Source: an uncultured bacterium (GTDB lineage: Bacteria; Patescibacteriota; Dojkabacteria; J137). Taken from it: a stretch of 64,000 bases of DNA. The notes under the pieces are model-generated. The model saw only the letters and a list, made by a program, of their open reading frames with translations. It searched no databases and was not told the DNA's origin. Every line of letters starts with the position of its first letter. Within the stretch, counting starts at the first letter, position 1. The stretch spans positions 445,511-509,510 of the forward strand of contig OY969472.1 of NCBI GenBank assembly GCA_963700155.1, written 5' to 3'. This document shows positions 3,455-9,370 of the stretch, one piece after another. Made by a program: the position numbers and the translations under genes.

Positions 3455-4105
3455 TTACTTCATTTGGAAAACTTTCTTTCTAAATAGAGTTATTAAGAAA
3501 AGAGAAAGTACAGAAGTCCACAAAGCAATTCCTAATGTAACTTGTCTTAAATTTGGTACATCTTCATCTAGAATAAGCAAAGTTGAGTCTCCAAAATTTC
3601 CTTTTGAATCTTCTTCAACAATGCTTTTTGAAGCATCTTGAATTTCTTTTGCAGCATCAGCATTTAAAGATGAATCAAGATTAATTTGAGCATTTAAACC
3701 TGAAATAATTTTTTCACCTTGTGTATATCTAGAAAGATTAACTGCCTGCCCTGTAAAGGTCTGGGAGAGGGGATTCAATTTTCCTGGTTTTACTTTAACA
3801 ACGATATTATCCCCATATTCTTTTAGTGCTGTGTAATAAAATTGAATCCCCTCTGTACTAATACTATCTTTAGCTTCTTCTGATACTTGTTTTAACAGAT
3901 CTGGAGTTCCAGTGATTTGAATAACACTATTTTCCGCAATTGAATCTTTTACTGAAGCATAATTATCTGCAGTTACTACTTTTACTTCTGATTGCGCTAA
4001 ATCTAAAGAGCTTTTATTTAGAAGATAAACAACAGTAAAAGATATTGTAGTAAAAACAAAAATATATGCTAGCGTTTTTATTATTTTTAGTAGTATTTGA
4101 TTCAT
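3455..4105 (-). CDS. Hypothetical membrane protein (N- and C-terminal TM helices, extracytoplasmic middle)
   Basis: 216 aa. Hydrophobic segments lie at both termini (IIKTLAYIFVFTTISFTVVYLL; LGIALWTSVLSLFLITLF). It is convergent and abutting with tig. Confidence 0.5.
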   Translation of the reverse strand: MNQILLKIIKTLAYIFVFTTISFTVVYLLNKSSLDLAQSEVKVVTADNYASVKDSIAENSVIQITGTPDLLKQVSEEAKDSISTEGIQFYYTALKEYGDNIVVKVKPGKLNPLSQTFTGQAVNLSRYTQGEKIISGLNAQINLDSSLNADAAKEIQDASKSIVEEDSKGNFGDSTLLILDEDVPNLRQVTLGIALWTSVLSLFLITLFRKKVFQMK

Positions 4106-6910: not shown

Positions 6911-7591
6911 TTATCGAACTTGGAGTGCTAATTCTTCATCTTCACAGTTAAGAATTAACTTTCCATCTTGATCTATTATCCCTTTTTGGAGCATATAATT
7001 CCATGCTTTTTCAATTCTGCCTACATATTGACTGCCAAAGAAATCCTTATCTTTATCATTTAATAAATCTGAAAACAATTCTCCTTCTGCAGTAATTTCT
7101 CCACCTATTCTAAACCAATTTTGTAGAATATATGCCTTTTCGAATATATCTTTTAATTCTTTTGGATTCAAATGAGAAATTAAGCCTTTCTTGAAGGCTT
7201 TCAATAAAACTACCAGTGGATGACGTTCAACTTCAATTTTATAAACATTTCTATTTACCCCTAAATATGGGATTTGTGATTTCGGGTAATCACCTGTTCC
7301 TATTGTTTTTGGGAAGATATTTATTCCTAAATTTTCATTTAAGATTCTCATTAATTTTCTACCATCAAATTCTGTACCTAAAATATCATCTAAAAGAAAT
7401 AGATCAAATTCTTCCCAAGAGATATGTTGTAGTCTTTCGATTAATTCTTCCTCAGGTAAATAACTATTAAGAGTCATTCTACTTCCTAACTTATCATTTC
7501 CTAATATTTCTACTTGAATACCTAATGCTTTTAAAGTCGCTGACATAAATTCAGCTTTATCGTATTCGTCTTCGATAATTAAAACTTTCAT
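6911..7591 (-). CDS. Response-regulator receiver-domain protein with uncharacterised C-terminal domain (orphan)
   Basis: The N-terminus MKVLIIEDEYDKAEF...FDLFLLDDILG resembles a CheY-like receiver (an acidic pocket plus a candidate phospho-acceptor Asp). The C-terminal roughly 100 aa are unassigned. No histidine kinase is present in the window. Confidence 0.5.
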   Translation of the reverse strand: MKVLIIEDEYDKAEFMSATLKALGIQVEILGNDKLGSRMTLNSYLPEEELIERLQHISWEEFDLFLLDDILGTEFDGRKLMRILNENLGINIFPKTIGTGDYPKSQIPYLGVNRNVYKIEVERHPLVVLLKAFKKGLISHLNPKELKDIFEKAYILQNWFRIGGEITAEGELFSDLLNDKDKDFFGSQYVGRIEKAWNYMLQKGIIDQDGKLILNCEDEELALQVR

Positions 7592-7627: not shown

Positions 7628-8704
7628 CTAAGCTTTCAGAATTTTGTACACTCGAATCTCCCTAGCTTGTTTATCTTTAATAATGAAGTCTGCATAGTAG
7701 TATTGGATTTTTTCGAAGAATTTTTCATCAAGATTCATAACCACACTCGGCCATTCTACAGCAATAATATTCCCAGGTTTTACCCATTCTTCAAATCTTA
7801 AAAGGTCAAGGTCTTCTTTTGTTTGAATCCTCCAGGCATCCATATGAAAAAGTTTATGATTTTCACCAAATTTATATTCATTAACATAGTTGTAAGTTGG
7901 AGATTTTATTACACGATCTATTCCTAAACCCTTGGCAGTCCCTTTTGTAAATTGGGTTTTCCCAGCTCCAAGCTCTCCATTCAATAGAATTAAAATAGGG
8001 GAAGAAGTTAGTTCTGGAAGTTTATTTTTTATAAAAATTTCTCCTTGCGAAATAGTTTCTTCTACGGAATTTGAAACGTAAGTTTCAAATTCCGTGACCT
8101 TTGTTGGATCAATTCTTCCTTCTCTATGAACTTTTAAATCTTCAGATGTTGTATCTATCACAGTTGTAGGAGGATTATGTGGAAGTTCTCCAGCATCTAT
8201 AACTAGATCAATTAAATCCCTCTGCTTTTCAGAAATATTATTCAAAATGTCATTAACAGTATATGGAGTTTTTTTTCCAGTCAAATTTGCTGATGTCACT
8301 GTAATAGGCTTACCAAACCTAGAAATTAAATCTAACAAAAATTTAAAATTTGGAATTCTTACTCCTAATGTGTGAGATTCAGACTCGAGTCTTGAATCAA
8401 CTTTATTTTTAGAATTTGAAACTATTGTGACAGCGCCCGGAAGGAATTTCTTGTATAAATTTTGAGCAACTGAGTTAAGCTCAACATATTCTTCTGCCAT
8501 TTCTTTATTCAAAACTGCAATAGGAATTGCCCTTCCTTCCGGGCGCTTCTTATACTCTAATAATTTAGTAACTGCAGTATGATTTGTTGCATCAACTGCA
8601 ACCCCATAACAAGTTTCCGAAGGAAATATTACTAATTTCCCATTATTTAAACACTTTACACTTTCTTCTATATTTTTTGGGTCTTCTAAACTGATTGTTT
8701 TCAT
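7628..8704 (-). CDS. Fusion protein: L-threonylcarbamoyladenylate synthase (TsaC/YrdC domain) + TsaE (YjeE ATPase) for tRNA t6A37
   Basis: The N-terminal half has YrdC/Sua5 motifs (FPSETCYGVAVDA; ITVTSANLTGKKTP). The C-terminal half has TsaE signatures (LNGELGAGKTQFTKG ... IKSPTYNYVNEY ... FHMDAWRI). Confidence 0.75.
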   Translation of the reverse strand: MKTISLEDPKNIEESVKCLNNGKLVIFPSETCYGVAVDATNHTAVTKLLEYKKRPEGRAIPIAVLNKEMAEEYVELNSVAQNLYKKFLPGAVTIVSNSKNKVDSRLESESHTLGVRIPNFKFLLDLISRFGKPITVTSANLTGKKTPYTVNDILNNISEKQRDLIDLVIDAGELPHNPPTTVIDTTSEDLKVHREGRIDPTKVTEFETYVSNSVEETISQGEIFIKNKLPELTSSPILILLNGELGAGKTQFTKGTAKGLGIDRVIKSPTYNYVNEYKFGENHKLFHMDAWRIQTKEDLDLLRFEEWVKPGNIIAVEWPSVVMNLDEKFFEKIQYYYADFIIKDKQAREIRVYKILKA

Positions 8705-8833
8705 AACGAAGCATTATAGCAAAATAGAAGTTTAAGAAAGAATATAATAAGAACTTCTTGGTATACTTAATTTAAAATTTCAATGCAAATCACAATTTGT
8801 GATATGCTCTAAAAATCTTATGTAAATTTAAAA

Positions 8834-9370
8834 ATGAGTAATAATACAATTGAACTTGAAAATATAACCGAAGCTATATATTACATCAGAGGGATGAAGG
8901 TAATGTTGGATTTTGATCTTGCATCATTGTATGGAGTTGAGAACAGAGCTCTAAAACAGCAGGTTCGAAGAAATTTGGATAGATTCCCAGAAGATTTTAT
9001 GTTTGAGCTAACTAGGGAAGAGTGGACTGAGCAAGTCACAAACAGTGACTTGCTCAAAAAATTTAAATTTATAAAGACACCTCCTTTTGCATTTACAGAG
9101 CAGGGAGTTGCGATGCTATCTAGTGTTCTTCGAAGTACACGAGCTATCCAAATTAATATCTCTATTATGCGCGCTTTTGTTGAAGTTAGGAAATCAATTG
9201 GCAGAAATAATGTTATTACCAAAAAATTATCTGAGCTCGAAAAGCGCGCGGATCTAAAATTTCTTCAATATGATGAACAGTTCAGAATTATTATGGAAAT
9301 AATACAAGGAATGAATAATGAAGATTCAGAAAAAAATAATCGAAAGATTGGCTTCAAAACAGATTTATAG
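8834..9370 (+). CDS. ORF6N-domain protein (phage/plasmid-associated anti-repressor-like)
   Basis: KVMLDFDLASLYGVENRALKQQVRRNLDRFPEDFMFELT ... FAFTEQGVAMLSSVLRSTRAIQINISIMRAFV matches the conserved core of the ORF6N/KilA-N-like family. Confidence 0.7.
   Translation: MSNNTIELENITEAIYYIRGMKVMLDFDLASLYGVENRALKQQVRRNLDRFPEDFMFELTREEWTEQVTNSDLLKKFKFIKTPPFAFTEQGVAMLSSVLRSTRAIQINISIMRAFVEVRKSIGRNNVITKKLSELEKRADLKFLQYDEQFRIIMEIIQGMNNEDSEKNNRKIGFKTDL

Follow-up and report, generated by a model that had tools for sequence, protein, structure and literature searches.

A single-chain fusion of TsaC and TsaE in Dojkabacteria and other lineages, and its proposed part in the delivery of threonylcarbamoyl-AMP to TsaD

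In a stretch of 64,000 nucleotides from an uncultured member of the Dojkabacteria (GenBank assembly GCA_963700155.1, contig OY969472.1, positions 445,511 to 509,510; called the window below), the gene at 7628-8704 encodes one polypeptide in which a genuine TsaC (YrdC) half is followed by a genuine TsaE half. Both belong to the pathway that makes N6-threonylcarbamoyladenosine (t6A) at A37 of tRNA. TsaC makes threonylcarbamoyl-AMP (TC-AMP), which breaks down within minutes; TsaD paired with TsaB moves the threonylcarbamoyl group onto A37; and ATP-bound TsaE sits at the TsaB-TsaD interface, at the tRNA site, with hydrolysis resetting TsaD (PMC6009658, PMC6614819, PMC9654439). We consider it probable that the gene is a bifunctional tsaCE, whose product would make TC-AMP at the TsaD complex and load it there during the TsaE-bound state. 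Judged from the sequences compared, the TsaC-TsaE fusion is both ancient and widespread.

The reading frame runs without interruption from an ATG at 8704-8702 to a stop at 7630-7628 and gives a protein of 358 aa, organised as follows.

7628..8704, minus strand: the whole tsaC-tsaE fusion gene, a single open reading frame (ORF) of 358 codons plus stop, passing Pfam and NCBIfam cut-offs
8108..8704, minus strand: N-terminal YrdC/TsaC domain, aa 1-199, predicted L-threonylcarbamoyl-AMP synthase (PF01300, TIGR00057, Foldseek, PDB sequence match)
8099..8107, minus strand: domain junction, aa 200-202, effectively without a free linker in the AlphaFold model
7631..8098, minus strand: C-terminal TsaE (YjeE) P-loop ATPase domain, aa 203-358 (PF02367, TIGR00150, Foldseek)

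A first-pass annotation, made from the letters of the window, had proposed such a single TsaC and TsaE polypeptide, and the domain models bear it out, with both halves above curated cut-offs. PF01300 (Sua5_yciO_yrdC) scores 150.2 bits on aa 18-196 against a Pfam cut-off of 25.1, and PF02367 (TsaE) scores 97.6 bits on aa 214-325 against 26.6. The NCBIfam equivalogs are also passed, by TIGR00057 for TC-AMP synthase on aa 7-203 (159.9 bits, cut-off 123.2) and by TIGR00150 for TsaE (91.9 bits, cut-off 60.1). The same Pfam scan of the fusion protein detected neither the SUA5 domain PF03481 nor the Kae1/TsaD-like domain PF00814, and no other P-loop family at E<0.01.

The strings on which the annotation had relied are all in place, namely GELGAGKT (aa 243-250), KSPTY (with SPTY at aa 268-271) and HMDAWRI (with HMDAWR at aa 287-292). 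Conservation of these and other positions was measured in an alignment of 60 fusion proteins, whose columns average 48% identity, and positions were classed as invariant or as conserved in at least 90%. The motifs are located as follows.

8543..8551, minus strand: KxR half of the TsaC tetrad, K52-K53-R54; K52 invariant, R54 at least 90%
8285..8293, minus strand: SxN half of the TsaC tetrad, S138-A139-N140; S138 and N140 at least 90%, T137 invariant
7955..7978, minus strand: Walker A motif (P-loop) GELGAGKT, aa 243-250; G246, G248, K249 and T250 invariant
7892..7903, minus strand: TsaE Switch I SPTY, aa 268-271; S268 and P269 invariant, T270 and Y271 at least 90%
7829..7846, minus strand: TsaE Switch II HMDAWR, aa 287-292; H287, D289 and W291 invariant in the close family

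The KxR...SxN tetrad is the accepted signature of TsaC (PMC9654439), and TsaE is marked by Switch I SP(T/S)(F/Y) and Switch II HxDx(Y/F)R (PMC6614819). In T. maritima TsaE, mutations in Switch I or II abolish the ATPase activity or the reset step (PMC6614819). In the present family, P-T-E-T and R116 of the TsaC half, and the Switch II arginine and E317-W318 of the TsaE half, are likewise invariant or conserved in at least 90%. GELGAGKT satisfies the Walker A consensus GxxGxGK(T/S). The sole departure from a motif consensus is in Switch II, where W replaces Y/F in the clade of the window and Y is found in distant fusions. The catalytic motifs of both halves thus look intact and conserved, and both halves look fully functional. 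The annotation had also named the finding that would undo it, a C-terminal half that is a generic P-loop kinase. This is ruled out by the TsaE cut-offs, by the TsaE-specific motifs of Switches I and II, and by Foldseek matches that are solved TsaE structures.

Protein searches covered a collection of 5.8 billion proteins, a separate library of 50%-identity representatives, and one genome per species of the Genome Taxonomy Database (GTDB). An identical protein is on record. The 120 best homologues in the 5.8-billion-protein collection have 48-64% identity and 350-396 aa, every one of them carries both Pfam domains, and the named ones are almost all from Candidatus Dojkabacteria, with one from Roizmanbacteria. 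Going by these nearest named proteins, an origin of the window in the Dojkabacteria (Patescibacteria) is the most likely. Among the 50%-identity representatives, 226 match at E<=1e-30, and at least 129 of the best 150 cross the junction, in that one and the same aligned stretch holds SxN, Walker A and all that lies between them. In the GTDB species genomes we found 48 full-length fusion loci (L001-L048), labelled as Dojkabacteria, Shapiro-, Beckwith- and Woesebacteria, "Microgenomates", Kerfeldbacteria, Parcubacteria and Planctomycetota, together with several metagenome-assembled genomes (MAGs) called Aenigmarchaeota, Micrarchaeota or "archaeon". When ten of the most distant loci were translated, all ten gave continuous two-domain ORFs. 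The carriers include a Planctomycetota MAG (L040) and two genomes of Candidatus Uabimicrobium, 9.3 and 9.5 Mb in size (L026, NZ_AP019860.1; L047, NZ_CP165719.1), which have no tsaD within 10 kb of the fusion. In this Planctomycetota subgroup the KxR region reads K-(S/T/K)-K-R, not K-K-R-P.

Together with the shared domain junction described below, this distribution is most simply read as one early fusion that then spread both vertically and horizontally. The fusion is lineage-wide in Dojkabacteria and Microgenomates, a point that the first-pass annotation had left to comparison with related genomes. Its description of the fusion as unusual holds relative to characterised bacteria, but not for a large family that is present in 48 GTDB species genomes and in at least 129 of the best 150 representatives. 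Its suggestion of an adaptation to a streamlined genome is at best a partial explanation and insufficient alone, because the large Candidatus Uabimicrobium genomes of the Planctomycetota keep the same fusion. Some short proteins match one half, being 40-66% identical to the TsaC half only or to the TsaE half only (P0208, P0224, P0249, P0262, P0263 and P0265, of about 200 aa; P0247 and P0258, of 137-179 aa). They may be pieces cut off at contig ends, or the fused gene may have split again secondarily.

An AlphaFold2 model, built from a 60-sequence alignment of fusion proteins, is compact and has two domains, with a mean predicted local distance difference test (pLDDT) of 94.1, a predicted template-modelling score (pTM) of 0.86 and no 10-residue block under 87. 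The YrdC strands end in this model with aa 191-194, those of TsaE begin with aa 203-211, and no disordered linker is seen between them. Foldseek searches of the PDB gave target-normalised template-modelling scores (TM-scores) of 0.81-0.85 between the N-terminal domain and E. coli YrdC (1hru) and YciO (1k7j), in keeping with the twisted open alpha/beta sheet of the YrdC fold. For the C-terminal domain these scores were 0.82 with HI0065 (1htw), 0.80 with B. subtilis YdiB (5np9) and 0.70-0.73 with T. maritima TsaE within TsaBDE (6s84, 6n9a chain E). The best PDB sequence match of the fusion protein is T. maritima TsaC2 (9d3h), and the best whole-chain Foldseek matches are Sua5/TsaC2 structures. 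The whole-chain root-mean-square deviation from these is 12-13 Å; therefore the second domain is not a SUA5 domain. Moreover, when 14 distant fusions from the candidate phyla radiation (CPR), Planctomycetota and Aenigmarchaeota-labelled contigs are aligned, their junctions are collinear, and the end of YrdC (L-R-x-G) is followed by about 8-15 residues and then by the first TsaE strand and helix. Such a junction, short, collinear and predicted to be rigid across phyla, suggests that the relative orientation of the two domains matters.

The neighbourhood of the fusion in related genomes links it to TsaD. A tsaD homologue lies directly downstream on the same strand in 34 of the 48 loci, and 1.7-3.5 kb away in two more. 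It is absent from at least 6.9 kb downstream in eight loci (L002-L005, three Planctomycetota loci and L042), and the contig is too short to judge in the remaining four. In L009, a complete Dojkabacteria genome (CP129475.1), the fusion gene shares 8 nt with tsaD, and in L006 this overlap is 22 nt. These downstream tsaD genes are of the bacterial type, with 327-377 bits to TIGR03723 (cut-off 296), and the archaeal Kae1 models are far under cut-off. From this adjacency across relatives it follows that the tsaCE-tsaD operon is ancestral and that the two genes were secondarily separated in the clade of the window.

In the model of Missoury et al. (2018), binding of TsaE "prepares" TsaD for interaction with TsaC and transfer of TC-AMP, and ATP hydrolysis later releases TsaE, which admits the tRNA (PMC6009658). 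In the crystal structure of TsaB2D2E2 (6n9a), TsaE is bound and TsaD contains carboxy-AMP as a ligand, which we count as a mechanistic precedent, and N-terminally tagged TsaE is functional in complex formation (PMC6009658). The fusion fits this model since it ties synthase and ATPase together 1:1, usually shares a message with TsaD, and has a short, conserved and well-folded junction. Because the domains are joined almost without linker and are co-transcribed with tsaD in most lineages, we propose the following working model. The N-terminal YrdC domain is predicted to convert threonine, bicarbonate/CO2 and ATP to TC-AMP, and the C-terminal domain is predicted to be a catalytically competent TsaE ATPase. 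Each docking of the TsaE domain on TsaD would bring the attached TC-AMP synthase along, so that the labile TC-AMP would be made and loaded at the transfer complex in the TsaE-bound state. After ATP hydrolysis, TsaCE would leave, tRNA would bind, and the threonylcarbamoyl group would go to A37. What we infer here comprises the activity of each domain, the docking, and whatever hand-off or kinetic coupling there may be. The coupling of TC-AMP synthesis to the TsaE cycle, which the first-pass annotation had put forward, is plausible and agrees with the published hypothesis (PMC6009658).

Several observations weigh against this proposal. Neither tsaD nor tsaB was found in the 64-kb window, either by tblastn with E. 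coli TsaD and TsaB sequences or, for TsaB, with a profile from a 4-round jackhmmer search against the window ORFs; the partners in this organism are thus assumed. A profile of five CPR TsaD proteins (four from Dojkabacteria, one from Microgenomates), run against the large protein collection, had no TsaD of the window's genome among the 120 matches listed, which counts neither for nor against. Adjacent tsaD is missing from the window and from its closest relatives (L002-L005). In addition, none of the 48 fusion loci has a tsaB within 10 kb that the TsaB profile detected; as a positive control, the profile finds tsaB immediately after stand-alone tsaE in 18 TsaE-only loci (L063-L080). Since tsaB is not seen near the fusion loci, the canonical TsaB-TsaD docking surface for the TsaE domain is not assured. 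The geometry is a further difficulty. A TobZ-like placement puts TsaC on the opposite side of TsaD from TsaE (PMC6009658), and a rigid, linker-less TsaC-TsaE cannot reach that position on the same TsaD protomer. The hand-off, if there is any, would hence need another geometry, either a different docking mode or delivery in trans to the second TsaD of the hexamer.

It is possible, though on balance doubtful, that both domains are active but independent. The fusion would then provide co-expression and 1:1 stoichiometry as a form of gene economy, and TC-AMP would diffuse as in E. coli. Such independence is in line with characterised systems, in which TsaC and TsaD work independently in vitro (PMC9654439), with the fusion being commonest in small CPR genomes, and with the clade of the window, which lost the operon link to tsaD yet kept the fusion. 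It accounts poorly for the persistence of the fusion in Planctomycetota genomes of 9.3-9.5 Mb, where gene economy is no issue, and for a junction that is not a variable tether but short, collinear and, as modelled, rigid across phyla.

We think it very unlikely that one of the halves is misleading, either because the N-terminal half is YciO-like or another YrdC paralogue without TC-AMP synthesis, or because the TsaE half has degenerated into a docking module that lacks ATPase activity. PF01300 does take in YciO and HypF/TobZ-type domains as well, the two E. coli-type models stay under their cut-offs (NF007919 for TsaC, 80.7 bits against 175; NF007931 for TsaE, 56.1 bits against 246), and the Y or F of the Switch II consensus is replaced by W. 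However, the general equivalogs TIGR00057 and TIGR00150 both pass, and the KxR...SxN tetrad, K249 and T250 of Walker A, Switch I, and the H, D and R of Switch II are conserved. Moreover, the protein is linked to t6A by its operon with tsaD, seen in 34 of the 48 loci. A merger of two adjacent genes by sequencing, assembly or frameshift error, in favour of which nothing was found, is refuted by the comparative data, because the identical protein is on record and all 120 homologues have two domains, the same continuous architecture recurs in more than 120 independent 90%-identity clusters (NCBI, JGI, ENA and Logan assemblies), in at least 129 of the best 150 representatives at 50% identity and in 48 GTDB genomes, and the fold is confidently predicted across the junction.

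The complete fusion also occurs on contigs with the label Aenigmarchaeota, Micrarchaeota or "archaeon" (L014, JAGVVZ010000001.1; L027, PFTQ01000027.1; L019; L036), with a bacterial-type tsaD directly downstream (TIGR03723, 376-377 bits). Their neighbour genes look archaeal, and include a Hel308-type "archaeal helicase domain 4", PAC2, an HFX_2341-like protein, a DnaG-like Toprim protein and NFACT. Proteins P0395-P0425 form a tight clade of about 30 clusters with 63-100% identity, five members of which were named Aenigm(at)archaeota by independent MAG studies. A bacterial tsaCE-tsaD module may have been transferred into DPANN archaea. A bolder combination of these observations, which we regard as unlikely, would make TsaCE and TsaD a self-contained two-gene module, perhaps independent of TsaB, that moved from CPR into DPANN (Aenigmarchaeota). 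There, the rigid TsaC domain would load TC-AMP while the TsaE domain holds TsaD in the reset state, and TsaD may pair with itself, like mitochondrial Qri7. In DPANN the module would stand beside or replace the archaeal Sua5 and KEOPS machinery. This combination relies on genes not found in the neighbourhoods and on the taxonomic assignment of MAGs, and its probability is low.

Comparison with known systems shows which parts of the architecture are familiar. Stand-alone TsaC (E. coli YrdC, 1hru/2mx1) and TsaE (HI0065, 1htw; YdiB, 5np9; 6n9a/6s84) have the same folds, family models and catalytic motifs as the two halves, and the tsaD of the relatives here is likewise of the bacterial type. In characterised systems, TsaC and TsaE are separate, whereas here they form one chain with essentially no linker; tsaE typically stands beside tsaB there, as in L063-L080, whereas the fusion loci are without a neighbouring tsaB within 10 kb. 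Sua5/TsaC2 (P. abyssi, 6f87; T. maritima, 9d3h) resembles the fusion in having an N-terminal TC-AMP-synthase domain followed by an alpha/beta domain of similar size. Its second domain is SUA5 and not TsaE, however, the second domains do not superpose, and the Sua5 inter-domain loop of about 20 residues is absent here.

TobZ, HypF and pandoraviral TsaN also have an adenylate-forming YrdC domain covalently tied to a component of the transfer step, and in TobZ and HypF the fusion of YrdC with a Kae1-like domain provides the unstable adenylate with a channel (PMC9654439, PMC10484737). The partner in these proteins is a Kae1/TsaD-like transferase, whereas here it is a regulatory ATPase, and TsaD is a separate downstream gene in the relatives; a channel as in TobZ and HypF is not claimable for TsaCE. 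The archaeal Kae1-Bud32 fusion (PRPK, MJ1130) is similar in belonging to the t6A pathway, in involving an accessory ATPase/kinase, and in being lineage-wide (PMC4615747). There, the ATPase is fused to the transferase, whereas in TsaCE its partner is the enzyme that synthesises the intermediate. Finally, in the reduced genome of Mycoplasma genitalium, MG259 joins TsaC to HemK, another enzyme related to translation (PMC4615747), but HemK lies outside the t6A pathway, and this fusion is uninformative on the delivery of TC-AMP.

The remaining features in and around the gene are the following.

8064..8095, no strand: perfect inverted repeat of 14 bp around a loop of 4 nt, in the coding sequence where the two domains meet (codons 204-214, encoding TEFETYVSNSV)
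8713..8718, minus strand: hexamer TATAAT, a perfect match, 8 nt upstream of the start codon (within 8705-8833), read from the sequence
6911-7591, minus strand: ORF of 226 aa directly downstream of the fusion, no Pfam match at E<0.01, starting MKVLIIEDE, with a receiver-like look
3455-4105, minus strand: ORF of 216 aa, no Pfam match at E<0.01
8834-9370, plus strand: gene with an ORF6N domain (PF10543), upstream of the fusion and divergently transcribed

The RNA of the junction repeat has a predicted folding energy of -22.2 kcal/mol with z = -3.8. A comparable hairpin at the junction was not found in the 37 of 48 fusion loci that the motif filter picked up for scanning, and we reject the repeat as a conserved regulatory element on the lack of a counterpart in these 37 related genes. 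The repeat probably does not belong to what is conserved in this system. The fusion gene of L013 contains a distinct 14-bp palindrome, which lies in a variable insertion elsewhere in that gene. No obvious Shine-Dalgarno sequence precedes the fusion ATG. The TATAAT at 8713-8718, which a two-hexamer promoter scan missed, might be a candidate promoter for a leaderless or near-leaderless transcript.

Downstream of the fusion the order is the 226-aa ORF, a phosphoglucomutase/phosphomannomutase gene, a class-I tRNA synthetase of the Trp/Tyr type, and the 216-aa ORF. In L003 the Trp/Tyr-type synthetase directly follows the fusion; therefore the 226-aa ORF and the phosphoglucomutase/phosphomannomutase gene of the window are local insertions. 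Neither the 226-aa nor the 216-aa ORF qualifies as a hidden TsaB, as both lack a match to the TsaB profile as well as any Pfam match at E<0.01, and in related genomes the 226-aa gene is missing beside the fusion. Where 0.4-1 kb separates the fusion from tsaD, the small ORFs in this gap were also considered as TsaB-like, and they turned out to be of the HIT family on the opposite strand. Such a HIT-family gene (PF01230) stands between tsaCE and tsaD, on the opposite strand, in eight loci (L008, L010, L011, L015, L024, L028, L034 and L043). HIT proteins hydrolyse acyl- and aminoacyl-adenylates. A tie of this gene to TC-AMP turnover is conceivable, and its position may equally be plain synteny within one clade.

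ORF6N domains are common in regulators of phages and mobile elements. Farther along the plus strand, at 13806-35889, large ORFs (1068, 1755, 1824 and 2177 aa) have a GC content mostly of 0.35-0.39, compared with about 0.30 around the fusion gene.

The TsaC-TsaE fusion is apparently undescribed. No description of it was found in the literature searched, which did not extend to subscription journals. Reviews of t6A diversity list only other fusions (PMC4615747, PMC9654439), and a 2023 survey of about 8,000 TsaC/Sua5 sequences, including those of DPANN archaea, leaves TsaE unmentioned (PMC10321239). Public databases hold these proteins with both Pfam domains and name them only "L-threonylcarbamoyladenylate synthase"; therefore, surveys based on names would wrongly score many CPR and some archaeal-labelled genomes as being without TsaE.

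The components themselves are ordinary members of the TsaC and TsaE families, and it is their architecture that bears on an open mechanistic question. The route of TC-AMP from TsaC to TsaD, and the role and timing of TsaC in the reset, are acknowledged to be open (PMC6614819, PMC6009658, PMC10484737). A rigid and old fusion that is usually co-transcribed with tsaD offers Rosetta-stone evidence for TsaC and TsaE acting jointly on the transfer complex. Moreover, as a stable reagent TsaCE could help to trap the four-component complex, which is otherwise transient, for instance in cryo-electron microscopy.

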